NCBI GenBank assembly: GCA_963727525.1
Contig: CAVSGO010000005.1
Coordinates: 64,001 to 128,000, forward strand
Length of the DNA stretch: 64,000 nt
Source of the DNA: an uncultured bacterium
Lineage (GTDB): Bacteria; Krumholzibacteriota; Krumholzibacteriia; LZORAL124-64-63
Direction of reading: 5' to 3'
Shown one piece after another: positions 4,663 through 21,996 of this stretch; the stretch's first letter is position 1; each line of letters starts with the position of its first letter. The notes under the pieces were generated by a model. That model worked only from the letters and a program-made list of their open reading frames with translations, was not told where the DNA came from and did no database searches. The position numbers were made by a program, and so were the translations under genes.

Positions 4663-6051
4663 TCAATGGAAGAGCGACTTCACCGCGCCCCAGCTCGCCG
4701 GTTCGATGGACATGCTGTTGTCCTCGATCCGCGTCTGCAGGTCGCTCGCCGTGAGCCCCGTGATGTTCGCGAGGTCGAGCGCCGACTGGAAGTCCGCCAT
4801 GGCGCCGCCCAGTTCCGGGCTGCCCACTTCGGCGAACTCGTTCATCACGCCCACGAGGGCGGCCTGCATCTCGGCGGTGATGAGGAAGCTGTCGCCCTGC
4901 CCGCCGACCTCGGCCCCCACGGCCGGCAGCCAGAGGTCCCACGCTTCAGCCACGCGGTGAATGAGCGCGGGGCGCTGCAGGACCGCCACGGCGAGATCGT
5001 CGGAGAGATCGTGGTAGAGCTGCACGTAGTAATCGCCCACGGTCGACGGCACCAGGATCTCGTCGCGGTACCGGCGCAACATATCCAGGTCTGGCCCCGG
5101 GTTGAACGTCTTGTCGCCGGCGGGATATTCCGTCTCAGCGTCGTCGAGCCGTTTATCGGGACAGGGCAGGCCGCAAATGTCAGCGATCGGTGCGCAATCC
5201 GCCGGACGCATGATCGAATACATGTAGGCGAACACGCAGGCGAAGCAGTAGTCGGCGGATCCGTTGATTTCGTCGGCGAGGAATGCGAAGAGCACGAACC
5301 AGTTGGATGAGGAGACGCGCTTGTTCGTCTGATTCAGGAGACGGAGCTCGTGGGTCGCGGACAGGTCGCCGCCACTCACCGCGGCGGCCGGCACCTGCAA
5401 CGTCTGCCGGGTGCTGCCGCCGAACTCGAGGGCGTGCAGGCCGCCATCGATCGAACTTGTGTACCAGACCACCGCGCCACCGGGCGGCAGGGTGTCGATC
5501 ACCACGTCCACCGCGACCGTGGTGCCGGGCGCGGTGGCCTCGGTCAGGCGTCCCAACGGGTCGAGCGGGATGTCGTCCGACACCTCGAAGTGGGCCGGCG
5601 GCGTCTGCGAGTCGTCGTCGACGATCGTCAGGACCGCGGCCGAGGGCTCGCCCACCTGGTAGAGGGCGCCCCCGTCGATGAGGCTGAGCAGGATGGTTTC
5701 CGGCGGCTCCAGCACGCTATCATCGTAAATCTGTATGCTGGCGTAGACGGTGTCGGCAACGCCGGGTTCGAAAATCGTGAAGGTGGTGCCGGACACGAAG
5801 TCGTCGCCGAACGTCGCCGTACCGGGGTCGATCTGCACGTACACCGAGATGGCCGCCGACGGCGGTTCGGAGATGACGAGGGCCACCATAGCGTTCGTAT
5901 TCTGTTCCACGACACTGTACTGCGTGAAAGCGAAGCTCACGGTGGGCTGGGCGACCACCATACTCGCGGACGCGAGCAGGACGGCGCCGGCCAGGACGCT
6001 GACGGAAACAAGGATCGGGCGCCGACTGCGGCGCGGTGCGCGGGTGCTCAT
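4663..6051 (-). CDS. Secreted Calx-beta domain protein with a CFI-box-CTERM-like segment and SWGAVKSLFH tail
   Basis: ATG at 6051 inside ORF 4663..7500, whose N-terminal half is a shadow of the opposite-strand gene. Signal peptide; Calx-beta-like SVVEQ...GTATFGDDF...IYDDSVLEPPETILLSL...LTIVDDD; LRRYRDEILVPSTVGDYYVQLY. Confidence 0.75.
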   Translation of the reverse strand: MSTRAPRRSRRPILVSVSVLAGAVLLASASMVVAQPTVSFAFTQYSVVEQNTNAMVALVISEPPSAAISVYVQIDPGTATFGDDFVSGTTFTIFEPGVADTVYASIQIYDDSVLEPPETILLSLIDGGALYQVGEPSAAVLTIVDDDSQTPPAHFEVSDDIPLDPLGRLTEATAPGTTVAVDVVIDTLPPGGAVVWYTSSIDGGLHALEFGGSTRQTLQVPAAAVSGGDLSATHELRLLNQTNKRVSSSNWFVLFAFLADEINGSADYCFACVFAYMYSIMRPADCAPIADICGLPCPDKRLDDAETEYPAGDKTFNPGPDLDMLRRYRDEILVPSTVGDYYVQLYHDLSDDLAVAVLQRPALIHRVAEAWDLWLPAVGAEVGGQGDSFLITAEMQAALVGVMNEFAEVGSPELGGAMADFQSALDLANITGLTASDLQTRIEDNSMSIEPASWGAVKSLFH

Positions 6052-6339
6052 TGCGAAACTCCTCACTGGCGAGTCGCGGCGAAGCCGGCGACGGAATCGG
6101 TACTGGTAAACGGTGCGCGAGCGCGCTGTCCCTGATATGAGACAGTTTTCGTCCCCGCGAATCACAGAGCCCGGGCAATTTCTTGCCGCCAGCCCCCGCG
6201 TTGGCGAGGCGCCGCACCGCTGCCTATTATTGAGTGGCCGTCTCGAGACCGGCCCGGGCTCGCCACGCCGCGTCCTGGCCGCGATTCGCCGACAAATCTC
6301 GCCGTCGGGCGCCCCGCGCCACCCTGGGAAGGATCGATC

Positions 6340-7532: not shown

Positions 7533-8816
7533 ATGCACAATCCGTGGGTCACACCGGACCGGATCCTCCCCCAGAATGGCGCGATCGATTGGGCCGTGGA
7601 CTACACGGCCCATCCCTTCCTCGATCCCACCATGCCCGACCGCGCGTCCCGGCTGCGCCGGTTCACCCAGCTCACCTGGGAGCGCATCCGCGACGACGAC
7701 GCGATCTACCGGCGCGAGGCCGCCCGCCTGCTGCGTCCGCTGCGCGGCGTACCGGGCGAGATCCAGCCGTGCCACGACGACATCGTCATCATCTCGGAGT
7801 ACCTGCAGGAAGCCGACGTCTACCTCTATTCCACCATCGACCTCTTGCCCGAGCCCTCGCGCGACGCGGTGCTGCCGCACGAGGACGTGAATCGCTGCCA
7901 CGACCTGCGCGAGCTGCTCGCCATGGTCTTCGGCGACGATCCCGGGCGCCGGCGCTTCGAGGCCCAGCGCAAGCTCTACCTGGCCAACCTGCTACTCGAC
8001 ATCGACCACTCGCGCCTGGTCCAGGACGGACCGCTCCACCTCGCGTACTTCGAGGAGTTGCTCGACAACGTGCTCTGGCGGCACAAGAAGCAGGAGTACG
8101 AGATCAAGATCGGTTTTCACATCGCGGACGATGGCGAGACGATCCGCTACTCGGCGCGGCCGCGGCGCAACGATCAGGTGTGGACGTTCCACTCCGCGTA
8201 CCTGGAGACGCCGAACGCGGGGGCGATGACGTCGCTCGACATCCTTTACTGGAATTGCCGCTTCAAGCGTTCGGTCGATCGCGTGAGCTTCGAGGTGGTG
8301 GATGGTCAGCACAAGGTGCTGGAACGGGTGCGCTGGAGCGAGATGCGCCAGCACCGCAGCGGGTCGATTCTCTCCAAGATGATCCGCCGCGGCATCAACA
8401 ACCCCGGGGAGATCGCCGACATGCTCGGCGCGATGTTCATCGTGCACGACGACGACGCCCTCAACGATCTCCTGGCGCTCCTCGACGCCGGCATCGGCAA
8501 CCCCTTCGGCTGGCGCAACGTCACCGACACCTTCGGCGCCGAGCCCGCGGGCAGCCGCCTCAATCGGCACAGCGCTGCCGGCTTCAAGGTCTTCAAGGGC
8601 GACGTCGACATCCTCATCCCGGGCCGCGGACCGGGCCAGCCGCCGTATCGATTCTCGGTGGAGATCCAGATCCACACGCTCGAGAGCTTCCTGCGGACGG
8701 TGTGCTCGGCGCACGCCGCCAGCCACCTGGCGCTCAAGCTAAGGCAGTTCGTGAGCGGGCTGGTACCGTACCTTTTCCCCACATCGGTCTACGGCGAGGA
8801 ATGGCTGCGCTACTGA
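7533..8816 (+). CDS. Stand-alone RelA/SpoT-like nucleotidyltransferase-domain protein (TIGR04552/TIGR04562-like)
   Basis: C-terminal half reads SILSKMIRRG...IADMLGAMFIV...NRHSAAGFKVFK...VEIQIHT, paralleling RelA/SpoT synthetase motifs. Starts 2 nt after the upstream stop. Confidence 0.6.
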   Translation: MHNPWVTPDRILPQNGAIDWAVDYTAHPFLDPTMPDRASRLRRFTQLTWERIRDDDAIYRREAARLLRPLRGVPGEIQPCHDDIVIISEYLQEADVYLYSTIDLLPEPSRDAVLPHEDVNRCHDLRELLAMVFGDDPGRRRFEAQRKLYLANLLLDIDHSRLVQDGPLHLAYFEELLDNVLWRHKKQEYEIKIGFHIADDGETIRYSARPRRNDQVWTFHSAYLETPNAGAMTSLDILYWNCRFKRSVDRVSFEVVDGQHKVLERVRWSEMRQHRSGSILSKMIRRGINNPGEIADMLGAMFIVHDDDALNDLLALLDAGIGNPFGWRNVTDTFGAEPAGSRLNRHSAAGFKVFKGDVDILIPGRGPGQPPYRFSVEIQIHTLESFLRTVCSAHAASHLALKLRQFVSGLVPYLFPTSVYGEEWLRY

Positions 8817-8836: not shown

Positions 8837-9895
8837 TCAGTGCGTCCCCGGCGTGATGAGGTGGCACTTCTCGCAGAGCGGCCCCTGCTCCGGATCCCCG
8901 TAGGGATTCGGTAGCGGGAAGGACCCCGAGACTTCCCCATCGTCCTCGAGCAACGACACGTGGAAATCCCAGCGCCCCGCCGCCGGCGCCGACGAGGCGT
9001 GCGCGCGGTGGCAACTCAGGCACATGACGCGGCTGTTGCCGATCGGTCCGATCGTGCTCGTGGTGGCGGCACGAGTGTCCTCGAAGGGAACCTCGGGCAG
9101 GTAGGCGAGCGCAAAGGTACCGCCGCCCGGGTTGCGGGTGCCGTCGTAGTTGTTGTAGTTGCGCGCCGTGCCGTGGGACAGCGTGCTGTCGGTGGGGTGC
9201 TGGAAGACGCTGACCTGTTCCTCGTGATAGCGTCCATGGCAGTTCGCGCACCAATCGGACATGCCCGCGCGATAGGCGGTATGGGATTCCGGCGTCTCGC
9301 CCGAGGCGAACCCCTGCGGCGGCAGCCCCACGGCCGTGGGTGCCGGATGGCTGAACTGGTAGCGTCCGCCCTGGATCTCGCCCACGCCGTACAGCATCCG
9401 GAAGTTGTCGTTGCCGTGCGGATCGTGGCAACTCGTGCAGCCGAGCCAGGCGCTCGGATAGGTGCCTCCGGGTGCCTCGGTGAAGCGCGTGTCGGCGTCG
9501 GCCCCGCGGTCCGGCGCCACGATGCTGTGGCCGGCCGCCTCGCCGGCGATGGGCTGCGTCAAACCGTCCGGACCATCGTTGATGTTGTCCTCGAGCAAGA
9601 AGACGAAGTTGCCGGCGCCGCGCTCGACCGGCGGGGTGAGCGGATTCTCCCCGAATACGCCACCCTGTCCGCCGTGGCACATCAGGCACACGTCGCTCGG
9701 ACTCGCCGCCACGAGCAGGGCCTCCCCGCCGTCGATCAGGACATCGCCGTCGCGTTCACCGTGGGTGACGTGGCAGGATGCACAGCTGGCGACACCCTTG
9801 TCGTGGAACGCGCGCGCCGTGGGTCCCGCGAGCAGGACCAGGAGCCCCAGGCCAACGCCGGTCAGGCGGGTCATGCTGGGTCGTATGGACTTCAT
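8837..9895 (-). CDS. Hexaheme c-type cytochrome, OmcS/OmcT family paralogue
   Basis: Signal peptide, then FHDKGVASCASCHVTH. Six CxxCH motifs (CASCH, CLMCH, CTSCH, CANCH, CLSCH, CEKCH); APGGTYP, GMSDWCANCH and VMCLSCHRAHAS as in OmcS. Start could also be 9874. Confidence 0.88.
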   Translation of the reverse strand: MKSIRPSMTRLTGVGLGLLVLLAGPTARAFHDKGVASCASCHVTHGERDGDVLIDGGEALLVAASPSDVCLMCHGGQGGVFGENPLTPPVERGAGNFVFLLEDNINDGPDGLTQPIAGEAAGHSIVAPDRGADADTRFTEAPGGTYPSAWLGCTSCHDPHGNDNFRMLYGVGEIQGGRYQFSHPAPTAVGLPPQGFASGETPESHTAYRAGMSDWCANCHGRYHEEQVSVFQHPTDSTLSHGTARNYNNYDGTRNPGGGTFALAYLPEVPFEDTRAATTSTIGPIGNSRVMCLSCHRAHASSAPAAGRWDFHVSLLEDDGEVSGSFPLPNPYGDPEQGPLCEKCHLITPGTH

Positions 9896-10013
9896 GATGG
9901 TCAGGAAGGCTCCCCGGGATGCGTGTTCGTTGCGAGCCGTATGCCCGCCCCCCACAATATGATAGCACATTGACCGCGTGTTTCCAGCAGCATTGTCGCC
10001 GAACGGCTTTGGG

Positions 10014-10050
10014 AAAAAGGAGACCCCGCGGAGCACGCCGCGGGGTCCCC
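10014..10050 (-). terminator. Rho-independent terminator after the first omcS-like gene
   Basis: Minus strand GGGGACCCCGCGG-CGTGCT-CCGCGGGGTCTCC followed by TTTTT. Confidence 0.85.
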
Positions 10051-10088
10051 TGTCAGCAATCCCGTCGAGACGGGCCGAAGGTCCGCGA

Positions 10089-11192
10089 CTACTCGTTCGG
10101 GGCGTCGAACTCGTCCTTGACGTGGCACTTGTTGCACAGCGAGCGCTGGTTGTCGCTGAACGTGTACTGGTAGTACTTGTTCGTCACATCGTCAGCCGTC
10201 GCGCCGTCGTCGGTGATCTGCGGGTGGGATTCATTGATGAACGTCGTGCCCATGTCCCAGCGCGCGATGTCGGAGAAGGCCGACGCGTGCGCGCGGTGGC
10301 AGCTCAGGCACATGACCTTGTCGACGCTGTCCGGGCCCAGCGTGTAGTCCATGGAATCGACGGTCTCCAGGTCGACGTTGACGGCCTCGAACGGCACCAG
10401 ACCGGCGTACGCCGTCGCCTGATCGCCACCATTCGGGTCGTCGGTGCTGATGTAGGCGTTGTAGATGGCGGCCACGGTGCTGCCCAGGTTCTCGCCGGCA
10501 GGATGCACGTGGTTGGTCGTGTTGTCGGTCAGGAAGTTCGGGTGGCAGTTGGCGCACCACTCGCTCATGCCGCTCTTGTACACGGTGTGCTTGGCATCGG
10601 TCTCGTTGCCGTTGGTGTCGCCCACCATCGTGCGGCGGCTGTTGCCCTTGGCCAGCGGCGCCGCGCTGGTGAACGGGAAGCGGGTGCCGTCGTAGCGGGG
10701 GCCGGCACCGGCGCCGTAGAGCAGGCGGAAGTTGGCGTTGCCATGGGGATCGTGGCAGCTGGTGCACGCGAGGCGGCTGCTCAGGAAGTCGCCGCCGGGG
10801 GCATGCTCGAGCGTCTGGTCGACGTCGATGCCGTAGGCCGCGGACACGACGTTGTGGCCGTGGGAATCACCGGAGCTGACCGTGGTGTGGCCATGAGCGC
10901 TCCAGCTGTAGTCCTTGGTGACCCAGTAGAAGTCGCCGCCGGGGCCGTAGCCGGCGCCGCCATAGAACTGGCCGTAGTCGGCGTGGCAGCTCAGGCACAC
11001 GTCGGTCGGCGTCGCCGCGACGAGCAGGAACGGATAGCCGGTGGCGCTGTCGGTCACCTGCTCGCCGTCCTGGCTGTTGTGCATGGTGTGGCAGCCGGCG
11101 CACTCGGCGACGCCGCCAGCGTGAAACGCGAGCACCGCGTTGGCGCTCAGCGAGAGAGCGATGATGAGAGCAATCTTGAACGTGGTCTTCAC
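10089..11192 (-). CDS. omcS: Hexaheme c-type cytochrome, OmcS nanowire-subunit homologue
   Basis: GTG start with GGAGG RBS; signal peptide; mature N-terminus FHAGGVAECAGCHTMHNS (Geobacter OmcS as recalled: FHSGGVAECEGCHTMHNS); PGGDFYWVTKDYSW, GHNVV, APGG, CTSCHDPHG, GMSEWCANCH, HPAG, CLSCHRAHAS, QRSLCNKCHVKD. Six CxxCH motifs. Confidence 0.93.
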   Translation of the reverse strand: MKTTFKIALIIALSLSANAVLAFHAGGVAECAGCHTMHNSQDGEQVTDSATGYPFLLVAATPTDVCLSCHADYGQFYGGAGYGPGGDFYWVTKDYSWSAHGHTTVSSGDSHGHNVVSAAYGIDVDQTLEHAPGGDFLSSRLACTSCHDPHGNANFRLLYGAGAGPRYDGTRFPFTSAAPLAKGNSRRTMVGDTNGNETDAKHTVYKSGMSEWCANCHPNFLTDNTTNHVHPAGENLGSTVAAIYNAYISTDDPNGGDQATAYAGLVPFEAVNVDLETVDSMDYTLGPDSVDKVMCLSCHRAHASAFSDIARWDMGTTFINESHPQITDDGATADDVTNKYYQYTFSDNQRSLCNKCHVKDEFDAPNE

Positions 11193-11391
11193 GGGTCTGC
11201 CTCCAACGGATTGCTACCAGGTTGTTCCGAACACCCGCGGTGCCCGGAGCGTTCGTGCCGTCAATCTCGATCACTGTCTGACACGACGAATCTCATATCG
11301 GTCGCTGCGGACTTTGCGTGCTTGGTTGCCGGTCTTCACTCCTTTCGTCATTCTTGCGCAGGCACATGCTGCAGGTTCGTGAGTGCCGCAA

Positions 11392-12324
11392 TCAGCGACG
11401 CCCGAGTTCTCGCATCCTGAAAACCTGCACGCGGCCCTCGAAGCCCTGAGCCACGTAGATCCGCCCCTCCGGCGTCGCGGCGAGCGCCAGCGGGTGATAG
11501 AGCTGTCCGGGTCGGAAGCCGAGCTTGCCGAACTCCGTGACGAACGTGTGGTCGCTGTCGAAGACGAGCACGCAGGCGCGCATGCGATCGAGCACCAGGA
11601 CCTCGCCCTGCGGCCCGAAAGCCACGGCGACCGGAAAGCTCATGCGGCCCGGCGACGAGCCGAAGCGTCCAAACGTGTCGAGCAAGGCGCCATCGGCGGC
11701 CAGGACGATGATGTGACGCAGATCGCCGCCGGGAACGTAGATGCGACCATCCGACGCCTCGGCCGGGCGCCCCATCGCCGTGAACGAGCGGCCTTCGCTG
11801 ATGTCGCGCTGCCACAGGAGTGCGCCGGTGTGCGCATCGTGCTTCGCCAGCACGCCGGAAGCCGAGTCCAGGGTCAGGTAGTCGCCATCGCGCGTGATCA
11901 GCAGATGGTCGGGATTCCAGTCGGCGATGGGCGGTTGCGCCGCGTAGGCGACGGGCTCGCCGAATACGTTCAGACGGCGGATCTCCGTGTGGAAATCGCG
12001 GCCGCGATCGGTGAACACGAATCCGCCATCGCGATCGATTGCGCCATCGGCGGGGTACGAGAGATCGGCGAGACGACTCGTGCGGAAAACCTCGACATCG
12101 CTCGGGTTGAGCAGGTGGAATATGGACTGGCGTACATCGGTGACGCAGATCTCGCCGTTGGTAGGATCGATGGAGATGGCCACCGGCCGCGGCTTGCCGA
12201 CGCTGCCCACGGAGAGCGGCAGCGTCGCCTCGTAGTCGAAGGCGTAGCCCGCGGCGCAGACCACGGCGTCGAGCAAGGCGGCAGTGATCGTTGTAAAAAC
12301 TACCAATTTCGTCAGCGTATTCAC
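11392..12324 (-). CDS. NHL-repeat beta-propeller protein (OscD-like companion of OmcS)
   Basis: Signal-like N-terminus; repeated P-x-x-I/V-A-x-D/G-x-x-G-x-I/V-Y-V units and FGRFGSSPGRMSFP / FGKLGFRPGQLYHP NHL motifs. Start GTG 12324 or TTG 12357. Confidence 0.85.
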   Translation of the reverse strand: MNTLTKLVVFTTITAALLDAVVCAAGYAFDYEATLPLSVGSVGKPRPVAISIDPTNGEICVTDVRQSIFHLLNPSDVEVFRTSRLADLSYPADGAIDRDGGFVFTDRGRDFHTEIRRLNVFGEPVAYAAQPPIADWNPDHLLITRDGDYLTLDSASGVLAKHDAHTGALLWQRDISEGRSFTAMGRPAEASDGRIYVPGGDLRHIIVLAADGALLDTFGRFGSSPGRMSFPVAVAFGPQGEVLVLDRMRACVLVFDSDHTFVTEFGKLGFRPGQLYHPLALAATPEGRIYVAQGFEGRVQVFRMRELGRR

Positions 12325-12415
12325 AACTCGCGAGCCTCGGAATGCGAAATCGGACAATTATCGACCAGTTACAGGCCCACCAATCCGCAGCACCTGTTCA
12401 TTCCCGACGCCATCG

Positions 12416-12611: not shown

Positions 12612-15600
12612 TCACTCCCGCTTCTGGCGCAGCTTGTCGGTGTGGCACTGTACGCAGAGGCGGCCGCCCGGGTCCGCAGTGAGGAACTTCGGGAAGGCAC
12701 TCCCGTGCTCATCGTGGCAGCTCGCGCACCCCATCGGACCACCCGTGCGCGGATCCGTGACAGACGGCCCGACCGGGTGGTCGGTGTGCTCGGCGTAGGT
12801 GTGGCAACCCAGACACGGTTCGCGCCGCGGCCCGGCGGCGGCTGCCTGCGTCGGCGCCGCGAGATGGGGATCGTGGCACATGCTACAGGTCCGGTCGTCG
12901 ATCACCGGATGCGTGTACGCGGCCTGGCGACGCTGGTCAACCTGCTCGGCATGGCACTGGCCGCATACGTCAGCCTGCTCGCGCGGCATCAGGGCCGCCT
13001 TCGGCGTGGTGTGAGGCGCATGGCACACGGTGCAGGCACCCCCGTTCGCGAGCGGAGCGTGCGGCACGCCCACTTTCAGGTCCTCACCCAGCCCGCGATG
13101 GCAGGTGAAGCACAACGCGGGTTCCGGCTTCACGAGATCGGTCTTGCCCGACACGTGACAGGCCGTGCACTGACCCTTGCGGTAGGGCGCATGAACGACG
13201 GCATGCGGCAGCGATTTCGCGTCCGACGCGTGCGGGGCGTGGCACGAGGCGCAGTCGGCCTCGGCCACCGGGAAGCCCTGGTGCTTGGACTTGAGGGCCG
13301 CGGCCGATTCACGGTGACAGTGGCCGCACACCTCTCGCGGCGCGGCGCGCAGGCTCATCGCCACGCGGCCGCCGTGCGCATCGTGGCACCCGAGGCAGTT
13401 GCCGGCGCGGAACGGGGCATGCACGAAGGCCTTCTTCTGTGCGGCCTGCAGGTCCGCGTGGCATTCCCAGCACAGCTTGCCGGCGGGTACGCGCAGCAAT
13501 GCCTTCTGCTGCGACGCGTGGGGCTCGTGGCAGGCGTCGCACTTGCCGTCGCGAACGGGCGTGTGCGCGAACGCGGGATTCGGTGCGAGATCCGCGAGGG
13601 CGTGGCACGACTCGCATGTCTCGGCCACGGTATCGGACACGAGCAAGTGCTCGCCGCGGCTGACATGAGGATTATGACAGGCTGAGCATTCGCCGGCCGC
13701 AACCGGGGCATGCACGACCGGAGCTGCCCCATGCCCCGTTACGGGATCCTCGTGGCAGCCCGCGCACAGGCTCGACTGGTCGACGATCGGCGCTTTCGAT
13801 TCGTGGCACACCGTGCAATCGCCGTCGGCGAATGGCGGGTGGCTGCGGGCGTGCAGCAGCGACGGTCTCGTGGAGCGGTGCGGTTCGTGGCACCACATGC
13901 AGTCGAGAGTACTGGGATCGCGGTCGAGATGCTTCTCCCGGAACGCGCTGGCGTTCTCGTCATGGCACTGGAAACAGAGCGCGGGCACCGGCTCGTTCAG
14001 GAAGCCCTTGCCCTCGCCGCCATGCGCCTGGTGGCAGGCGAGGCAATCGCCCTGGGCCGGCGCGTGGATGGACACCGCACCCTCGGTGGACGCGACGTCC
14101 TGATGGCAGAGTGTGCAGAGCACCTCGGTCGGGGCGACGAGGAGCTGCTTCTGCGGCGACCGGTGGGGATCGTGGCATGCCGTGCAGTCGCCGGTAGCCA
14201 CCGGCTGGTGCGCGTGCCAGTTCGGGCTCTGCGCAACCTGCACATCATGGCAGGTCGCGCAGATCTGCTGCGCGGGCTCGCGCAGGAATGCGGGGTTGTC
14301 GCCACCGTGCGGCAAGTGGCAGGTGCTGCACTCGCCGGCGGCCGTGGGCGCATGCACGCTGCCGCCGTCAGGCGCCGTCACCATGTCTTCGTGGCAGCGC
14401 TGACAGAGCTGCTCGGGCGCCGTATTCAGGAGCTGCGGCTGTCCCGCCGCGTGCGGCTCGTGGCAGGCCAGGCATTCACCGCGGGCCACCACGTCATGCG
14501 GATGGGCAGACGCGATCTGGAGCTGCGTACTCACGTGACAGCTCAGACAGAGCGCGCCGGGCTTGTCCCTGAGGAGCGAGGCCTCGCTCGCACTGTGGGG
14601 GTCGTGGCACTTCGTGCAGTCCTTCTTGACGACGGGCGCGTGGGTCGACGCCGCATCGGCCGGCACGACGTCGTCGTGGCAGGTCGTGCACAGGTCGCGC
14701 GAAGCGGCGACCAGGAGGTGCGGCTGCTGACCACCGTGCGGCGTATGGCACTCGGCGCAGTCGCCGTCGGCCACTGGCGCGTGCACGTCGGCGCGCTGGA
14801 AGGCGGCCGCATCGTGGCACGCAAGGCAGGTGCGCGCCTGGTCGCTGACCAGCAAGTGGGCATACGGACTGCCGTGCGGCGCGTGGCACGCCAGGCAATC
14901 GCCATCGGCCGCCGGCGGATGGGGCTCCGTGGCGCCGGCCGTCACGTCGTCATGGCACGCCTGGCAGAGCTGGGGCACCGTCGCCAGGAGCGCATGGTCG
15001 TCGCGCATGGCACCGTCGCTCGTGGTCTCGTGGCAGGAGGCGCAGTCGCCGTCGGCCACCGGCGCGTGGCGCACGACGTGCAGCATCGCCCGGGAGTCGG
15101 AGCTGTGCGGATCGTGGCACGAGATGCAGCCGCTGGGCGCGGTGGTCGCGTTGCCATGGGCGCTCGCCAGCTTCGCTGCGTCGTCATGGCACGAGGCGCA
15201 GAGCGCGTCGGGAGCCTCCTTGAGCATCGCCAGCTGGTCCGACCCGTGCGGGTCGTGACAGACCACGCAGCCGTCCTTCTTCAGGGGCTCGTGCACGTAC
15301 TTGCGCGCGAAGGCGCCGGCGTCATGGCAGCGGGTGCAATCCTTCGCACCGCGAGCCTGCAGGAGATAGGGCTGGCCCGAACCGTGCGGATCGTGGCACG
15401 CCGCGCAGCCATCGTCCTTGATCGGCGGGTGCGTCACCTTGCGCTTCACGGCCGTCGCCACATCGTCATGGCACTCGAGGCAAAGCGTGTTGCCCGGCAG
15501 CTTGAGCGCGAGCTTGCCCACCACGCCGTGCCGGATATGGCATGCCTCGCAGTCTGCCGCCTTGAACGGCTCGTGGGCGTACTTGTCCTTCACCTGCGAC

Positions 15601-15737
15601 TTCATCGTGTCGTGGCAGTCGAGACAGGCCTTCTGCTTGAACGGCCCCGCCTGAGCCGTCGCCGCCAGCATCACGACGACGGCGAGGCTCAGGAGAGCCC
15701 ACCGGCGAGCTTCGGTCATGAAGGAGGTGCGGACCAC
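12612..15737 (-). CDS. Giant multiheme c-type cytochrome, 42 CxxCH motifs (doubled-CXXCH repeats)
   Basis: Hand count of 42 CxxCH. Repeat unit HxP...CxxCHxPH.S...LL...LCxxCH; signal peptide ending ATAQA; GTG 15737 with GGAGG 7 nt upstream. Confidence 0.93.
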   Translation of the reverse strand: MVRTSFMTEARRWALLSLAVVVMLAATAQAGPFKQKACLDCHDTMKSQVKDKYAHEPFKAADCEACHIRHGVVGKLALKLPGNTLCLECHDDVATAVKRKVTHPPIKDDGCAACHDPHGSGQPYLLQARGAKDCTRCHDAGAFARKYVHEPLKKDGCVVCHDPHGSDQLAMLKEAPDALCASCHDDAAKLASAHGNATTAPSGCISCHDPHSSDSRAMLHVVRHAPVADGDCASCHETTSDGAMRDDHALLATVPQLCQACHDDVTAGATEPHPPAADGDCLACHAPHGSPYAHLLVSDQARTCLACHDAAAFQRADVHAPVADGDCAECHTPHGGQQPHLLVAASRDLCTTCHDDVVPADAASTHAPVVKKDCTKCHDPHSASEASLLRDKPGALCLSCHVSTQLQIASAHPHDVVARGECLACHEPHAAGQPQLLNTAPEQLCQRCHEDMVTAPDGGSVHAPTAAGECSTCHLPHGGDNPAFLREPAQQICATCHDVQVAQSPNWHAHQPVATGDCTACHDPHRSPQKQLLVAPTEVLCTLCHQDVASTEGAVSIHAPAQGDCLACHQAHGGEGKGFLNEPVPALCFQCHDENASAFREKHLDRDPSTLDCMWCHEPHRSTRPSLLHARSHPPFADGDCTVCHESKAPIVDQSSLCAGCHEDPVTGHGAAPVVHAPVAAGECSACHNPHVSRGEHLLVSDTVAETCESCHALADLAPNPAFAHTPVRDGKCDACHEPHASQQKALLRVPAGKLCWECHADLQAAQKKAFVHAPFRAGNCLGCHDAHGGRVAMSLRAAPREVCGHCHRESAAALKSKHQGFPVAEADCASCHAPHASDAKSLPHAVVHAPYRKGQCTACHVSGKTDLVKPEPALCFTCHRGLGEDLKVGVPHAPLANGGACTVCHAPHTTPKAALMPREQADVCGQCHAEQVDQRRQAAYTHPVIDDRTCSMCHDPHLAAPTQAAAAGPRREPCLGCHTYAEHTDHPVGPSVTDPRTGGPMGCASCHDEHGSAFPKFLTADPGGRLCVQCHTDKLRQKRE

Positions 15738-15764
15738 GGTGTATCCTCCCGCCACGTGGGCGAT

Positions 15765-17102
15765 CTATGGCGCGACGGCGCCTTCGCGACCAGTGCCTGC
15801 TGCCGCCACCCGCGCCGCGACCATGGCCTCGGCGTCGGGGACGATCGTGATCGGTGTGGCCGCCCTGAGCTTGGTGATGGCCTCGGACATCTGTGCCACG
15901 GACTGCTCCGTGCGCATGAGGCCGATGATCTTGCTACGGCAGGCGTCCAGCGGAGCGGGTTCGACCTTCTCGACGCCGTCGACCACGGCCACCACCCATC
16001 CGCCCGGCACCTCGAAGGGATCGAGCACCGTACCGGGCTTCATCTGCACCGCCTCGATGCCAAGCATCTGCGGGTCGAAGAAATCCTGCGGGAACGGCGG
16101 CGGCCCGTCGACGACGCCGGGCAGATTGCGCCGCAGCCAGCCGAGCATGGCCCCCTGCGCCAGCCGCGTCCGCATGGTCTCGGCCGCCTCCTTCGACTCG
16201 AGCTTGACGCTGTCGAGCTTCACCCGCGGCGCCGGTGTCACGTCCGACAGATGCTTCTCGTAAAACGCCTCGACCTCGGCATCGGTGGGCTTGGTGTCGA
16301 CCGCCGCGAAGATCTTCACCGACTCCTCCTGCACGAGCTGCCGCTCGAGCCGCCGCGCGTACAGGCGCAGGTCCGGCCGCTCATCGACATGCTCGATCTT
16401 GGCCTGATAGCGCACGAGAGCCTCATCGAGCCAGCTCGCGAAAATCTTGTCGCGCCGTTCGGCCGCGTCGGGCTTGCCCTCCATGCCGTGGTACTCGCGG
16501 AAACGTATCTCGCGCGAGAGATGCTTGACACGCATGGTCCCCGAAGGGATCCGGGTCAGCACGTCCTCGCTATCGTGCAGATGCTGCTGTATCGCCGGAT
16601 CGGCCGAGCCGTAGTCGAGCGACTTGAGGAGCGTCGTATCCACCGTGACGGCGTATTGCTCGCGGAGTCCCTGGATGTAGGCGTGCACCGCGGCCGTGCG
16701 CGACGGGACATCGGCGGCGGCGGTCGCGGCCACGGAATCGAGGAGCGCCTTGGAACACTGCGTACGCACCGCCTCCGTGACCTGATTCTTCACCGTGAAC
16801 TGCTGGTCCAGCCCCATCCGGTAGCCCTCCTGGATGATGAGCTGGTTCTCGATCATGCGTTTCAGGACGGCGGCCGGTTCCGGGAGCGCGATCGGCATAC
16901 CGGAGGGCGCACGCTGGCGCATGAGCGAGAGTTCGATATCAAGATCGACGACGCGCAGCGTGTCGTCGCCGATGAAGGCCAGGGGCTGCTCGGACGCGAC
17001 CGGCGTCGCAAGTGCCGGCACGGCCTGGACGCAGGCCACGGGCACCGCCGACAGGGCGATCAGCAGCAGTCCCGGCCACCAGGACAGGCGATGTACGGAC
17101 AT
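15765..17102 (-). CDS. SurA/PrsA/PpiC-like periplasmic chaperone / parvulin-type PPIase (OscH-like)
   Basis: Signal peptide; SurA-N-like VLKRMIENQLIIQEGYRMGLD and a second similar repeat; parvulin-like VKLDSVKLESKEAAE...MKPGTVLDPFEVPGGWVV. Confidence 0.75.
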   Translation of the reverse strand: MSVHRLSWWPGLLLIALSAVPVACVQAVPALATPVASEQPLAFIGDDTLRVVDLDIELSLMRQRAPSGMPIALPEPAAVLKRMIENQLIIQEGYRMGLDQQFTVKNQVTEAVRTQCSKALLDSVAATAAADVPSRTAAVHAYIQGLREQYAVTVDTTLLKSLDYGSADPAIQQHLHDSEDVLTRIPSGTMRVKHLSREIRFREYHGMEGKPDAAERRDKIFASWLDEALVRYQAKIEHVDERPDLRLYARRLERQLVQEESVKIFAAVDTKPTDAEVEAFYEKHLSDVTPAPRVKLDSVKLESKEAAETMRTRLAQGAMLGWLRRNLPGVVDGPPPFPQDFFDPQMLGIEAVQMKPGTVLDPFEVPGGWVVAVVDGVEKVEPAPLDACRSKIIGLMRTEQSVAQMSEAITKLRAATPITIVPDAEAMVAARVAAAGTGREGAVAP

Positions 17103-17103
17103 G

Positions 17104-18171
17104 TCAGGATTCCTTCCTCACCGAGCGAAGGTCTTGCCAGAGTCTATCGGCGGAGCGTTGCAAGATGCGCATGAGAGGCGTGGTGTCGGTGGACCCGAAC
17201 CACCGCACGTCGTCGCTGCGGTCGCGATACCGGGTGGCGCTGGCCGCCAGCAATCCGTCCGGAAGATCGATGGTCCGCAGCGTGAACGCGAAGTCGCGCA
17301 CACCCGTCGCATGCACACTGGGCGCGGCATCGTCGAACATGGCACTGCGCACGCCGCTGCCGCGCAGGTCGTCGAATGCGACCAGTTCCGGCCGCACGAG
17401 GGCGGACACGCCGAAATGGTCCTGGAGCTGCTGATACGCCGCGTGCTGCAATCGCTGCGGGTCGAATCCCGCGGCGAGCAGGTCGGACAGCACGAGCGCC
17501 GGATCGATGGGGCGGGCATCATGGCTGGCGAGCGCGGCGCCCAGGACGCAGAACGTCGCGGTCAGCGCCATGTCGGCATCACAACCCACGCCGATGGTCG
17601 GCATCACGAGCACCGATGCGGCACTCGTGGCGGGGGACACCGGGGAAGTGAGCTGAGCCATGACGCCTTGTACCGCCGCGAGCAAGGCCGCGGTCTCCCC
17701 CGCGGGATCCTCGCCGGTCAACCTCTCGGCCACTGGCTGCTCCGCGAGCCAGACCTGATTCACGCGTCCCGAACTCGTCTCGACGCCGCGAACCAGGGCC
17801 ACGACGCGCTGCGCCTCGACGATGACGTGCGCGACCACGAGATCAGCCACACCCACGCTATCGCGCGCAGCGGCGAGGAACGCCGGCGTCAAGAGCATGC
17901 TGCTGCGGATGCGCTCCTGCCGCGCAAGCGCCACGACTGCAGACGTCGGCGCGACATCGTGCCCCAGACGCTGCAATGCCGTCTCGCCGGCTCGCGTCAC
18001 GACGATGCGGAGCTGGCTCACGGTGATGGGCAGGACCGTTTCCGTACGGCCGCTGATGAAGACCAGGAGTCCCGTGCGCGCAGGAGCAGGCGCGGCCCAC
18101 ACCGGCCCGGCCGCCGCCAGCGTGGCGGCGAGCAGTCCGGCTGCGAATCGGTTGCGCGCGACGTCGGACAT
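17104..18171 (-). CDS. Exported protein, possibly with two TolB-N/CsgG-like alpha/beta domains
   Basis: ATG overlaps the upstream stop (TGATG); signal peptide ending PVWA; repeats ending VRGVETSSGRV and LRTIDLPDGLL resemble the l.l.d..tG strand of CsgG/LpoB folds. Confidence 0.55.
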   Translation of the reverse strand: MSDVARNRFAAGLLAATLAAAGPVWAAPAPARTGLLVFISGRTETVLPITVSQLRIVVTRAGETALQRLGHDVAPTSAVVALARQERIRSSMLLTPAFLAAARDSVGVADLVVAHVIVEAQRVVALVRGVETSSGRVNQVWLAEQPVAERLTGEDPAGETAALLAAVQGVMAQLTSPVSPATSAASVLVMPTIGVGCDADMALTATFCVLGAALASHDARPIDPALVLSDLLAAGFDPQRLQHAAYQQLQDHFGVSALVRPELVAFDDLRGSGVRSAMFDDAAPSVHATGVRDFAFTLRTIDLPDGLLAASATRYRDRSDDVRWFGSTDTTPLMRILQRSADRLWQDLRSVRKES

Positions 18172-18740
18172 CAGAACAACGTTTCCATGGCATCGTCGAC
18201 GGCCTCGCGTGTCACGTCGTAGAGACTCGCCGAGCCGCCACCGAAGAGCTTGCGCCAGATCGAGGTTCCGTTGCGATGGACCTGGCTCTGCCACACCAGG
18301 GACCCGGTCTGCGTCTCTGCCAATGCCAGCGTCAACGTCACTGCGTTGACGCGGTCGCCGCCGAGCTTCTCCGCCCCATAGTCCTCGACGGATCCGAAAA
18401 CGATGGCGTCGACACCGAGCTCCTTGCCGAGCGCCACGATCTGCTCGGACGAGGGATCCTGATTCGTGTCGAGCTTGAGGCTGCGGATCGCAGCGTAGAC
18501 CTGGCCTTCTTCGATCACACGCAGCGCGCCACGATCGAGCAGGTACGACATGACCACCGAGTAGACACGCGCGTCCGCGAACGGATCCGGTGTGCGATTC
18601 TGGAGGGGGTAGACAGCCGCGCGTTGGATGAAGCTGTAGTCGACATCCTCGCGCACGAAGGATGTCGGCCGAGAGGCGCAGCCTGGAAAGACCGCCCCCA
18701 CGACAAGCAGGATCCCCAGGCCGATTGTGGTTCGCTTCAT
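18171..18740 (-). CDS. Lipoprotein of the CsgG/PelC/GNA1162/LpoB-like fold
   Basis: Lipobox FPGC; AAVYPLQNRT, ALGKELGVDAIVFGSVEDY, LALAETQTGSLVWQ; GGGAGG RBS. Confidence 0.8.
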   Translation of the reverse strand: MKRTTIGLGILLVVGAVFPGCASRPTSFVREDVDYSFIQRAAVYPLQNRTPDPFADARVYSVVMSYLLDRGALRVIEEGQVYAAIRSLKLDTNQDPSSEQIVALGKELGVDAIVFGSVEDYGAEKLGGDRVNAVTLTLALAETQTGSLVWQSQVHRNGTSIWRKLFGGGSASLYDVTREAVDDAMETLF

Positions 18741-18795: not shown

Positions 18796-21006
18796 TCAGA
18801 AAGTCCAGGTCCCTCTCACGTTCCAGTTCGTCGGCGTATTACGATCTCCATGCTGCTTGACCAGAGTCCACTCCGCACCACCCTCGAAGCGCAGATGGCG
18901 GCGCGCCTTCCATACGGCGCCCCAGCCCGCGCCACGCTGCACGTAGTCGGTGCGGGTGTCCTGCTGGTCGGTGAGATAGAGTCGCAAATTCATGCTGCCA
19001 CCTGGCAGCGGGGTCCAGCTCAGGGTATTGCGTAGCAACCAGGCGTCTTCGTCGCGCACCTGGTACAGGACCTGACTGTTGAAGAACACGAGCGGCCGGA
19101 TGGACCAGTTGACATCGAGGCTCGTGTCGTTGAACGGCGTGAACCCGGAGCCCGCCTCCTGGTTGACCCAGCGATCGGCGCGACGCAGGTGCAGATCGAG
19201 GTAGGGCCGCGGCGCCCCGCGCACGTCGGACACGAGTACCCAGGAGTGGCTCTGCCCGTCCACGTCCTGCGCATCGCGAATGCCATAGGTGACCTTCTGG
19301 GCGAACGTGAGCCGCGGCTTGGCGTCCCAGGTCACGTCGCCCGTCCAGGAGTTCGTCGTACGGCGCTGGATGTCGCTCTGATCGTTCACGCGCGACCAGG
19401 CGACGCGCGCGCGCAGATCGGCCCGCCGGGCCGTGGCGACGGACACGTGCTGGGCCGTAACGTCCGTATTCTGCCGGGACGCGCTGATCACACGATTGAT
19501 CTGGTGGTCGGCCGACACAACCACGGGACCGGGCCGCCACGAGGCGCCGAACACATGGGCCATGCCGTAGACGTCGCGATCGTCGGTGTCGTAGTGGCGA
19601 CCAGTGAGGCTGGTGCTGTAGCGCACGCCGATGGTGGTCGTCAGGTCGTAGCCGATGTCGCCCTGCACACGATAGCGGTCGAGCGTGGAACGCACGCGCG
19701 TGTCGCCGCTGCCGGGCGCCGGTTCGTACACCTCCATCTCGTTCACGTAGAGGTCGGCCTCGGTGGGGCCGAACTTCTGATCGACGAGCTTGAGGCGACG
19801 ATGCGCGATCGGCGTGGCGAAGGTGAAGACCCAACCTTGACGGTTATCGGCCATCTCGTCCCAGACGACCGACACCTGACCCGCCGACAGCGGGTCGCCC
19901 CACTCACGCCCCTCGGGATCGTCGCTCACGTAGACCGACCAGGCGATCAGATCCGGGAAGCGGACGATGCGGTCGACGTAGAGGACGACCGACGCCATGG
20001 TCTGCGCCTCGCCGAAGTCGACGATGAGGTTGCGGAAGTCGCCGCCATACTGGCGCACGATCGAGGCCGAGTCGCCGATGTTGATCACGGTCGGCGTGTC
20101 GCGATCGCCGTCGGCCAGGGCCGTCACGGCCACGGGATCGAGCTCGAGCGGATCGAGGATCCCGGGCGTATCGTCGAGCGAGTAGCCGCTCCAGATCGGC
20201 GGCACGAGGATCGTGGCCCCGCTGCCGAATGCGGTGTTGGTCTGGCGGAAACGGCTGCCGGTGGCCTGGAGGGAATACCGTCCGCGGTGGTCGGCGAAGG
20301 CCCGCGCGCTACGCAGTTGCACCTCGTGGCTCACGTACTCGGTCTCATGGCCCTGAGTCTTGGCCCGCTGATCGCTGCGTGTGAACTGGTACTGCACGGA
20401 CTCGAACCGCGTGGGGTCGACCTCCACACGGCCCGACTGACGATGTTCGCGATTCTCCCGGCTCGTGCCGTTGGCCTCGCGCCACGATCCGATCTCGAGG
20501 GCGCGCGCCTCCAGTGAGATCTGCGCGAACTCGAGGCGCGACCAACCACCGTACTCCGCGTAGTCGTCCCGGCGGGACGTGCCGTCGGCATACCAGTAGT
20601 CGCGGCGCGAAGCGAGACCCGAGAGTCCGCTCCGCCACGCGCCCGTCTCGTAGTTCAGCAGCAGGCTCGGACTCGCGTACTCCGAATGCGACTTGCTGGT
20701 CGCGCCGTCGAAGCTGCTCTCGAGATGCTGGCGCCTCGCGACGGCACTGCTCAGGAGATCCAGGCCGCGCATGAATACGATACGTTGATCGAGGCGGTAG
20801 GTCTCGGTGAGCGTGGAGTTGTCGTAGGCCGTGAGTCCGGCGCCACCGCTCTGCCACGTATTCCAGAGGTCGGCGCGCCCGTTGAGGGCGAGCGCCGCAG
20901 GCGCGAGACCGGCAACCACGACGACGAGGAACAGGCAAGACGCCTGGACGTGCGCTCTGCTGCCCGCGCAGCACTCGTCGAATCGCGTTGCCGGAAGCAC
21001 TCGCAT
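18796..21006 (-). CDS. Predicted outer-membrane beta-barrel protein with an inserted discoidin-like domain
   Basis: Signal peptide; alternating polar/aromatic strands; C-terminal beta-signal WNVRGTWTF; central segment ALADGDRDT...LIVDFGEAQTMASVVLY...LYVNEMEVY. Start uncertain (21006 or 21066). Confidence 0.7.
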   Translation of the reverse strand: MRVLPATRFDECCAGSRAHVQASCLFLVVVVAGLAPAALALNGRADLWNTWQSGGAGLTAYDNSTLTETYRLDQRIVFMRGLDLLSSAVARRQHLESSFDGATSKSHSEYASPSLLLNYETGAWRSGLSGLASRRDYWYADGTSRRDDYAEYGGWSRLEFAQISLEARALEIGSWREANGTSRENREHRQSGRVEVDPTRFESVQYQFTRSDQRAKTQGHETEYVSHEVQLRSARAFADHRGRYSLQATGSRFRQTNTAFGSGATILVPPIWSGYSLDDTPGILDPLELDPVAVTALADGDRDTPTVINIGDSASIVRQYGGDFRNLIVDFGEAQTMASVVLYVDRIVRFPDLIAWSVYVSDDPEGREWGDPLSAGQVSVVWDEMADNRQGWVFTFATPIAHRRLKLVDQKFGPTEADLYVNEMEVYEPAPGSGDTRVRSTLDRYRVQGDIGYDLTTTIGVRYSTSLTGRHYDTDDRDVYGMAHVFGASWRPGPVVVSADHQINRVISASRQNTDVTAQHVSVATARRADLRARVAWSRVNDQSDIQRRTTNSWTGDVTWDAKPRLTFAQKVTYGIRDAQDVDGQSHSWVLVSDVRGAPRPYLDLHLRRADRWVNQEAGSGFTPFNDTSLDVNWSIRPLVFFNSQVLYQVRDEDAWLLRNTLSWTPLPGGSMNLRLYLTDQQDTRTDYVQRGAGWGAVWKARRHLRFEGGAEWTLVKQHGDRNTPTNWNVRGTWTF

Positions 21007-21089
21007 CCTCGTGAATCCTGTATCGCCGCGGCGATGCGTCCCCCACAACGCGTGACTTCGCTGCACGGTGCTGTCGAAATGTGGTTAAA

Positions 21090-21169
21090 AGCGTAACAGT
21101 ATGGCGTCACGGAATCAAATAATTCCTAATTATCAGTCGGATTTCTTGACAGACAACGTTCGGATTTCT
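21090..21169 (-). promoter_or_regulatory. Sigma70-like promoter with a 10-bp direct repeat
   Basis: Minus strand TTGATT (21118-21113), 17 nt, TG-extended TACGCT (21095-21090). TCGGATTTCT occurs at 21137 and 21160. Confidence 0.55.
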
Positions 21170-21996
21170 CAGAAGCCGGCCTGGGCGACCTGCGGCGACG
21201 GCACGCCTGGCGACGCGAATTGATGGCAACCGAGGCAGAGATCCCGCGGTGGGTCGAACGGGATCAGAAGGTCGCGCGTGGTCGCCGTCAGCAAGTGGCA
21301 CGTCTGGCACTCGAGCCGCCCCGCCGGCAACGGTAGGCGGCTGTCGAGATCGGCCCGCAAGCGGCTGCCGGGAATCGTCTGCCCCGCACGCACCGCGATG
21401 CCGAAGGGATGACTCGCGTGCTCGTCGAACCGCGGACCGGTCTCGGCCCCTCGTTCACGCCAGAACGACGCTTTGTTACCGGAATGGCAACCGAGACAAC
21501 CCTCGGACGGGGAGAGCCCGGCGAGCCGCTTCGCGTCCTCGTGATAGAGTCTCGCGGCTTCACGATGCGCATCCGAGACCTGGGCAAGATCGTGCCCCGG
21601 CCCGTGGCATGACCGGCAATGGGCCGCGTCCACGGTGCGCAGACTCGCCAGCGACAGGCTGCCGAGCGGCGTCGCGACGGCATCGGGCGCATGGAAGGCA
21701 TGGCAGCGCACGCAATCGGGAGCATCCGCGCCCCCGCCCCGCACCTGGTGGAACCAGGTCGCGAGCGCACGGGTCGAGGCCGGATGCGCGCCATGGCAAC
21801 TCCGGCACGCCGCCGTCGACGCGTTCCCGCCGGCCGACGCACCGCTGGCGGAACGGAGATGGCAGAGGCGGCAATCCACTCCGGAGTGCGCCGTCGCTTG
21901 GCCCGGATCGGCCGCGCCAGCCGACGCGGCGAGGAGGACCAGGGCTGCGAGGATCACCCCCGCCAACCGGCGATGCTTGATCACGTTGCTCATCAT
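21169..21996 (-). CDS. Exported heptaheme c-type cytochrome
   Basis: Signal peptide; seven CxxCH (CRLCH, CRSCH, CVRCH, CRSCH, CLGCH, CQTCH, CLGCH); C-terminal SHPFG...LPL..G.LECxTCH module. Confidence 0.88.
   Translation of the reverse strand: MMSNVIKHRRLAGVILAALVLLAASAGAADPGQATAHSGVDCRLCHLRSASGASAGGNASTAACRSCHGAHPASTRALATWFHQVRGGGADAPDCVRCHAFHAPDAVATPLGSLSLASLRTVDAAHCRSCHGPGHDLAQVSDAHREAARLYHEDAKRLAGLSPSEGCLGCHSGNKASFWRERGAETGPRFDEHASHPFGIAVRAGQTIPGSRLRADLDSRLPLPAGRLECQTCHLLTATTRDLLIPFDPPRDLCLGCHQFASPGVPSPQVAQAGF

Follow-up and report, generated by a model that had tools for sequence, protein, structure and literature searches.

A short-connector hexaheme cytochrome of the OmcS family in a Krumholzibacteriia genome, a candidate filament subunit

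Does the genome of an uncultured bacterium assigned to the Krumholzibacteriia encode a cytochrome wire of the OmcS type, and is it a pared-down version of the one known from Geobacter sulfurreducens? The question is raised by a hexaheme cytochrome gene, here termed P0001, in a 64,000-nucleotide (nt) stretch of contig CAVSGO010000005.1 (assembly GCA_963727525.1, positions 64,001 to 128,000), hereafter called the window. A sequence-only reading of the locus had taken P0001 for an OmcS homologue that keeps the histidine central to polymerization and has trimmed loops, making it a minimal, more solvent-exposed wire. Our analysis shows that P0001 is an OmcS-family c-type cytochrome of six hemes, with an OmcS fold in the predicted model and probable export by the Sec pathway. 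We regard it as a good candidate for an OmcS-type filament, and think it rather likely that it polymerizes.

The P0001 open reading frame (ORF) comprises 367 codons from a GTG start, and its third-position GC of 0.92 is the top value among the listed long frames of the window. The precursor length of 367 residues and the N- and C-terminal strings quoted in the sequence-only reading are all present in this ORF, whose features are as follows (window positions; strand in brackets).

11200-11204 (-): GGAGG ribosome-binding site, 7 nt 5′ of the GTG start, from sequence reading
10089-11192 (-): P0001, OmcS-family hexaheme cytochrome gene, from the ORF and its translation; precursor 367 residues, mature protein 345 residues
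11127-11192 (-): predicted Sec-type signal peptide, residues 1-22, with predicted cleavage between AVLA and FH
11088-11102 (-): heme motif 1, CAGCH, residues 31-35, invariant in a 130-row alignment
11079-11081 (-): codon of His38, mature His16, in CHTMH; candidate inter-subunit heme ligand by alignment to OmcS His16
10983-10997 (-): heme motif 2, CLSCH, residues 66-70, from motif scan and 130-row alignment
10752-10766 (-): heme motif 3, CTSCH, residues 143-147, then DPH(150)G and a 5-residue connector (39 residues in OmcS)
10542-10556 (-): heme motif 4, CANCH, residues 213-217, from motif scan and 130-row alignment
10296-10310 (-): heme motif 5, CLSCH, residues 295-299; in OmcS the neighbouring subunit supplies the second ligand of the counterpart heme
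10122-10136 (-): heme motif 6, CNKCH, residues 353-357, from motif scan and 130-row alignment
10008-10051 (-): intrinsic-terminator-like hairpin about 38 nt 3′ of the P0001 stop, a 14-bp G+C-rich stem with a 6-nt loop, followed by CCUUUUUCCC

The protein begins with MKTTFKIALIIALSLSANAVLA, followed across the predicted cleavage site by FHAGGVAECAGCHTMHNS; the hydrophobic 22-residue leader ends in AVLA, and cleavage probably occurs before F-H. In both phmmer and BLASTP alignments this site falls where mature OmcS starts (residue 1), which makes His38 of the precursor equivalent to mature His16. The six CxxCH motifs start at residues 31, 66, 143, 213, 295 and 353, the chain has 19 histidines in total, and its C-terminus ends in ...QRSLCNKCHVKDEFDAPNE. 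Folding of the whole 106-nt stretch that carries the hairpin 3′ of the gene gave a z of -2.4, and the hairpin was not listed by the consensus terminator scan. In the 200 bp between P0001 and the gene 5′ of it, a promoter scan listed no sigma-70-like site.

When P0001 was compared with all PDB chain sequences using phmmer, OmcS (6EF8/6NEF) was the sole match at E ≤ 1, with an E value of 7.4e-55. The alignment runs in two stretches, from P0001 residues 23-153 against OmcS 1-150 and from P0001 154-360 against OmcS 185-407. For comparison of precursors, we took the OmcS precursor from the Geobacteraceae genome G022; its match to 6ef8_A spans residues 1-407 and scores 937.8 bits. BLASTP of P0001 against this protein gave 161/444 identities (36%) and an E value of 1e-72. 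The two ends are indeed as close to OmcS as had been noted, with 16 of the first 18 mature residues and 10 of 12 C-terminal positions identical (QRSLCNKCHVKD in P0001, QRALCNKCHAKD in OmcS).

The predicted structure agrees with the sequence comparison. An AlphaFold2 (AF2) model of P0001 built from the 130-row alignment has a mean predicted local distance difference test score (pLDDT) of 93.4 and a predicted template modelling score (pTM) of 0.88, and Foldseek with this model returned only 6ef8_A at E ≤ 0.001 (E 6e-27, template modelling scores 0.78/0.70). The sequence-only reading had proposed a structural alignment to OmcS. Carried out as a comparison of the predicted P0001 model (residues 23-360) with the solved 6EF8 chain (residues 1-407), it gave a Z of 33.2 and a root mean square deviation of 2.2 Å over 323 residues (VIA), the next-ranked structure being OmcE at Z 4.2. 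Thus 323 of the 345 mature residues of P0001 are predicted to follow the OmcS core, and the remaining 84 OmcS residues are extra in this superposition. These data bear out the assignment of P0001 as an OmcS homologue.

In the cited parts of Filman et al. (2019), OmcS has histidine as every one of its 12 axial heme ligands, 11 of them from within the subunit and one (at heme 505) from the neighbouring molecule; a ligand supplied by the adjacent subunit is likewise described in the cited part of Wang 2022 (eLife). Ligand residue numbers of OmcS were not found in the cited portions of Guberman-Pfeffer 2022 or Filman 2019, supplements excluded, and we assigned the six distal positions from invariance across the family. 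OmcS has 17 histidines, those of the CxxCH motifs being residues 13, 51, 145, 243, 332 and 404, and exactly six of the 11 others are invariant or nearly so: H2, H16, H110, H148, H257 and H335. Among these, we take His16 to be the trans ligand, paired with His332 on heme 5′. All 12 OmcS positions obtained in this way are kept in P0001, in which H24, H38, H113, H150, H230 and H302 align to the six distal histidines in the order given. The mapping that the sequence-only reading had called for thus yields a full set of candidate ligands, and the histidine it placed at mature position 16 does align to His16 of OmcS.

Conservation of these positions was assessed in several samples. In the 130-row alignment, H113, H150, H230 and H302 do not vary, conservation of H24 and H38 is at least 90%, and the CxxCH columns are invariant except for C213 (at least 90%). 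From the 80 best genome loci (species-level genomes) and the window we collected 113 OmcS-like frames. Keeping one frame per start, and only frames of 300 residues or more that have 6 or more motifs and whose mature N-terminus can be recognized, left 101. All 101 of these genome rows have five of the non-motif histidines, and 95 have His in the His16 column. A further sample consisted of 101 full-length representatives of 50%-identity clusters, drawn from the 150 best of 869 matches; here His16 is kept in 93. Of the six distal histidines, then, His16 alone appears ever to be lost, which fits a role as the ligand between subunits.

For the tree, the long branch L020_12155 was removed from the 101 genome rows and four paralogs from G022 and two from the Geomonas genome G001 were added, giving 106 rows. 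Six genome rows are without His16 (L031, L032, L039, L040, L061 and L062), and one G001 paralog (L088, 384 residues) brings the number to 7 of 106. These rows fall in at least three separate places in the tree, and they may represent non-polymerizing or chain-ending forms. No consistent signal of a compensating cis His or Met was seen in the seven; there are a few Met-enriched columns, due for the most part to a single small clade (L031, L032, L039 and L040). P0001 also has a seventh non-motif histidine, His202 (10587-10589 (-), ...DAKHTVYKSGMSEWCANCH), which is present in 85 of the 101 genome rows and 33 of the 101 cluster representatives and is without a counterpart in OmcS.

How could His16 bear on filament formation? 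According to the cited portion of Filman 2019, the hemes of OmcS stack in motif order. In a chain with the OmcS fold, heme 5 is therefore out of reach for a histidine of the same chain three residues after motif 1, and the conservation of this histidine all the same implies a partner chain. We propose that P0001 would be exported and its hemes attached, and that its subunits would line up head to tail in the manner of OmcS. Each subunit would provide, with His16 (His38), the ligand that heme 5 (C295-H299) of the next one lacks, and heme 6 would be stacked against the neighbour's heme 1, giving a continuous heme chain. Such a chain could carry respiratory electrons beyond the outer membrane, with periplasmic 42-heme and 7-heme cytochromes feeding it through a barrel-like protein. 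Genes for candidate partners lie directly upstream of P0001 on the same strand, and a second gene of the OmcS family, P0002, lies downstream. In order of transcription they run 7-heme, 756-residue, 396-residue, PPIase, 42-heme, NHL, P0001 and P0002. They are given below with the number of loci in which relatives were found; these counts come from tblastn of the window genes against the 80 loci, many of which are short or cut, and are lower bounds.

21169-21996 (-): cytochrome with 7 CxxCH motifs, 275 residues, at the head of the cluster, by motif count; relatives in at least 7 of 80 loci
18796-21066 (-): 756-residue protein ending ...GTWTF, outer-membrane-barrel-like, with no Pfam match and a C-terminal aromatic residue; at least 21 of 80 loci
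17104-18294 (-): 396-residue protein with a signal-peptide-like stretch after residue 40 and no Pfam match; at least 11 of 80 loci
15765-17102 (-): protein with a peptidyl-prolyl isomerase (PPIase) domain (Rotamase_2) and a signal peptide; Pfam E 3.4e-12; at least 17 of 80 loci
12612-15755 (-): 1047-residue cytochrome with 42 CxxCH motifs, by motif count; relatives in at least 50 of 80 loci
11392-12357 (-): NHL-repeat beta-propeller protein, Pfam NHL E 3.5e-10; beside an OmcS-like gene in at least 59 of 80 loci
9986-9959 (-): promoter-like site before P0002, from a promoter scan
8837-9895 (-): P0002, paralogous OmcS-family hexaheme gene, mature protein about 323 residues, 42% identical to P0001 and in a different deep clade

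The 756-residue protein is a putative barrel, with a C-terminal end of a kind common in outer-membrane barrels. In the loci shown, the 396-residue gene always lies between the PPIase and 756-residue genes. Among 18 loci examined, the full window order (756-residue, 396-residue, PPIase, 42-heme-like, NHL and the two OmcS-family genes, OmcSa and OmcSb) was also seen in L003, L005, L013 and L021, and L017 has the same order minus a match to the 396-residue gene. The promoter and terminator scan placed a terminator-like hairpin after the 42-heme gene and a TTGACA-16-TATGCT site before the NHL gene.

The same neighbourhood can be read in another way. P0001 might be a non-polymerizing hexaheme cytochrome of the outer surface or periplasm, a monomer or small oligomer that acts as terminal or intermediate carrier of a porin-cytochrome-type conduit together with the 756-residue barrel-like and 42-heme proteins, as non-wire paralogs may do. 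A barrel-like protein encoded alongside multiheme cytochromes does resemble porin-cytochrome systems. Moreover, only OmcS is known as a wire among the four Geobacter paralogs (OmcS, OmcT, OmcJ and the cytochrome at the GSU2501 position), as far as the cited part of a recent preprint goes (bioRxiv 10.1101/2025.11.06.686851), and all four keep His16. P0001 is equally far from these paralogs (35-36% identity, with OmcJ outside the comparison) and stands outside their clade. This alternative has difficulty with His16 itself, however, since in the OmcS fold (Filman 2019, cited portion) a histidine beside heme 1 cannot be a ligand to heme 5 within one chain, and its presence in 95 of 101 rows thus speaks for an inter-subunit contact. 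It also has to accommodate relatives of the PPIase and NHL genes of the Geobacter block GSU2500-2493, which has been linked to maturation and secretion of OmcS nanowires in the cited part of the same preprint, where Shen et al. 2025 is the source. We consider a non-polymerizing P0001 fairly unlikely.

Several observations nonetheless weigh against a P0001 filament. His16 is not diagnostic, since the OmcT, OmcJ and GSU2501-position proteins keep it and the cited portion of the preprint gives no wire for them. The solved filaments of the OmcS family in the PDB are those of OmcS only, a long-loop form. A two-copy prediction (P0001 residues 23-367 with the 130-row alignment and 4 hemes), which counts neither for nor against a filament, returned a score of 0.00, with a mark of 0.42 and the controls not run. 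Specific orthology to OmcS fails: the four G022 paralogs form part of an 18-row clade without P0001, with 100% support in the Shimodaira-Hasegawa-like approximate likelihood ratio test (SH-aLRT), and P0001 falls in a separate 21-row clade (98% SH-aLRT). On this tree P0001 appears co-orthologous to the whole Geobacter paralog group and not to OmcS alone. The likeness of the neighbourhoods is also incomplete, in that the order differs, with the cytochrome genes last in the window cluster and first in the Geobacter block, and the 498-residue one-heme, 199-residue and 392-residue proteins of G022 have no BLAST counterpart in the window. A filament of P0001 subunits remains the reading we prefer.

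Is P0001 then a trimmed wire? The long loop after CxxCHDPHG is indeed missing: 5 residues separate CHDPH from the R(L/I)L anchor, compared to 39 in OmcS, and in the phmmer alignment P0001 residues 153/154 stand against OmcS 150/185. The segment after heme motif 2 has 14 residues in P0001 and 31 in OmcS, and that before heme motif 6 has 50 and 64, respectively; the other anchor-to-anchor segments differ by a few residues. In mature protein per heme, P0001 has 57.5 residues and OmcS 67.8, a ratio that is only suggestive as a sign of heme exposure. The comparison with OmcS therefore upholds the shorter loop, and the notion that this shortness is special to P0001 does not survive comparison with the family. 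The median mature length of the 101 genome rows is 345 residues, exactly that of P0001, and the connector after CHDPH has exactly 5 residues in 69 of the 106 rows and 25-53 residues in the other 37. All 21 rows of the P0001 clade have the 5-residue connector, as does the 44-row clade of P0002 (100% SH-aLRT).

The number of long-connector rows equals the size of a single 37-row clade (SH-aLRT 99), which holds OmcS, OmcT, OmcJ and the GSU2501-position gene and comprises rows from Thermodesulfobacteriota, Myxococcota and Nitrospirota along with all four G022 paralogs. This match implies that the loop character changed once. The midpoint root lies between a 60-row and the 44-row group, and under this rooting, which is not independently established, the long loop would be a gain on the OmcS side rather than a loss in P0001. 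The short connector thus appears to be the ordinary state of the P0001 branch and not a special trimming. One caveat is that the norm depends on the sample. Among the 101 cluster representatives, long forms are the majority, with 86 having at least 15 connector residues and 12 having at most 8. Long forms seem to be the more diverse at the level of sequence clusters, and short forms to be many but closely similar; the best 120 of the 90%-identity clusters have 359-431 residues and are 62-100% identical.

In light of these data, it is very doubtful that P0001 is a derived, loop-trimmed, minimal version of the OmcS wire with hemes more solvent-exposed than in OmcS. The residues-per-heme ratio and the 84 OmcS residues without a structural counterpart would be in keeping with such a protein, and a family root within the long-loop clade would make the short connector a derived state. 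However, the short connector is shared by most of the 106 rows and the long one is confined to a single well-supported clade, midpoint rooting makes the loop a gain, and P0001 sits at the median length of a family with many even shorter rows, P0002 among them.

The presence of P0002 next to P0001 raises the further idea that both enter one filament, either with the two alternating or with P0002 as a minor subunit that serves as base, cap or nucleator. A gene of the P0001 clade followed by a P0002-type gene occurs in the window and in L003, L004, L005, L010, L011, L013, L017 and L021, and P0001 and P0002 both keep His16 and all other ligands. The two genes would also have separate signals, with the terminator-like hairpin after P0001 and the promoter-like site before P0002. 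On the other hand, no second copy was found nearby in five P0001-type loci (L006, L014, L015, L016 and L028), and a different second paralog is found in L007, L008 and L012. We therefore judge a two-protein filament improbable. The same low credence applies to a broader version, in which the short-connector clade would make OmcS-type filaments in Krumholzibacteriota-like bacteria with P0002 as minor subunit, the loop being a later, dispensable addition of the Desulfobacterota. Were it true, cytochrome wires would exist as two-component structures in a Krumholzibacteriota-like lineage, outside the Desulfobacterota.

Two irregularities were seen among related loci. At 9998-11168 of L021, a metagenome-assembled genome (MAG) labelled Krumholzibacteria, the P0001-type gene occurs as two overlapping frames with 2 + 3 heme motifs, which could reflect either a frameshift or an assembly error. 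The P0002-type neighbours in L005, L010 and L013 have 7 CxxCH motifs, not 6. In the window, a glutamyl-tRNA reductase-like gene (heme biosynthesis; 22041-22982 (-)) lies directly upstream of the cytochrome cluster, with relatives close to the OmcS-like gene in at least 6 of the 80 loci. Just outside the cluster at its other end are a gene for a 427-residue protein (7533-8816 (+)) with no Pfam match and no relative in the 80 loci and, just beyond, a gene for a Calx-beta-domain protein (4663-6150 (-)).

How widely does the family occur? Among the matches listed, the nearest homologs of P0001 come from MAGs with the label Krumholzibacteriia and have 70% identity. Further ones come from MAGs labelled Gemmatimonadota, Fibrobacteraceae, Zixibacteria, Ignavibacteria, Calditrichaeota, Acidobacteriota and Desulfobacterota, and in Geomonas and Anaeromyxobacter. 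At least 529 of 600 pattern-matched stretches from the species-level genome set encode a relative. OmcS is also mentioned along with these phyla in further metagenome surveys. The genome of the window has two members of the OmcS family, P0001 and P0002, and 21 open frames with at least 4 CxxCH motifs.

Pieces nearly identical to the window sequence were seen in three sequencing runs. A 301-nt contig from the metatranscriptomic run X1 matches window positions 10331-10631 with 2 differences, a weak hint that P0001 is transcribed. Two DNA runs contain 151-nt pieces, with 2 differences in X2 and 0 in X3. These pieces indicate that a near-identical strain is present in the three data sets. Word shares are only 0.07-0.16 in the three runs, and most pieces are 40-60-nt conserved stretches of relatives; the short pieces map to heme motif 4 and to the C-terminal region.

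P0001 is an ordinary member of a known, widespread family. OmcS homologs have been described as widespread (Portela et al. 2024; a 2026 review; cited portions), and genes for OmcS and Cyc2 were reported from a Krumholzibacteria MAG with FeGenie (Dalcin Martins et al. 2021, PMC7914226). In the passages cited, the latter finding is a marker-gene call, with no analysis of structure or of the gene cluster. Because homologs and companion genes are known to be widespread and OmcS has been reported in Krumholzibacteria, what is gained here is incremental. If P0001 does polymerize, the 34-residue loop of Geobacter OmcS would be unnecessary for wire formation, and cytochrome wires would be found in Krumholzibacteriota-like sediment and marsh bacteria, which bears on which organisms transfer electrons to and from minerals there. 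With its lower number of residues per heme, the short form could also offer structural or engineering studies a simpler scaffold.

Set beside known systems, P0001 shares much of its architecture with OmcS itself (GSU2504 of G. sulfurreducens). Both have six CxxCH motifs in the same order and the same six non-motif histidines, and both signal peptides are cleaved before FH, at a predicted site in the case of P0001. P0001 is 62 residues shorter (345 versus 407 in the mature protein) and has seven more residues at the C-terminus. OmcE (PDB 7TFS), a tetraheme nanowire protein, matches the heme-binding core of P0001 weakly in structure (131 residues); it has four hemes and no sequence homology to P0001. 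An inter-subunit His ligand is described for OmcE as well, in the cited part of Wang 2022 (eLife). The OmcT, OmcJ and GSU2501-position cytochromes of G022 are of the same family as P0001, with the same motifs and with His16. The first and last of these are 35% identical to P0001, and all three are long-loop proteins of 403-410 residues, unlike P0001.

The gene cluster can be compared with the eight-gene companion block of omcS (GSU2500-GSU2493), which reportedly encodes a chaperone of the PPIase type, channel-like proteins and also a beta-propeller, in agreement with the kinds of gene in the window. In G022, the genes 3′ of OmcS and OmcT encode, in turn, a 1035-residue protein, the GSU2501-position hexaheme cytochrome, a 498-residue one-heme protein, proteins of 729, 199, 392 and 578 residues, 26-heme and 10-heme proteins and a 301-residue protein. 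The 42-heme protein of the window is 33% identical to the 26-heme protein (BLAST E 3e-126) and also matches the 10-heme protein (E 4e-34). It aligns repeatedly to both, as if the two had been fused or expanded into one chain. The window PPIase matches the 578-residue protein (E 3e-13), and the NHL protein matches both the 301-residue protein, the last of the block (E 8e-8), and, in Geomonas L074, the product of the gene that lies upstream of the OmcS-like one (E 1e-19). The 756-residue protein matches a 744-residue protein of L074 (E 4e-8), which in turn matches the 729-residue protein of G022 (E 1e-138), a distant relative of the 756-residue protein. The 396-residue gene is similar in place and size to one of the G022 genes and has no BLAST similarity to the block. 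A single 42-heme protein in the window thus stands for the Geobacter 26-heme and 10-heme proteins, and a 7-heme cytochrome heads the window cluster. As judged from the encoded proteins, the P0001 cluster shares at least five kinds of gene with the omcS companion block, for one or more hexaheme cytochromes, an NHL propeller, a PPIase-domain protein, a barrel-like protein of about 750 residues and a giant multiheme cytochrome, and in Geobacter, as in the window, the latter four lie near hexaheme genes.

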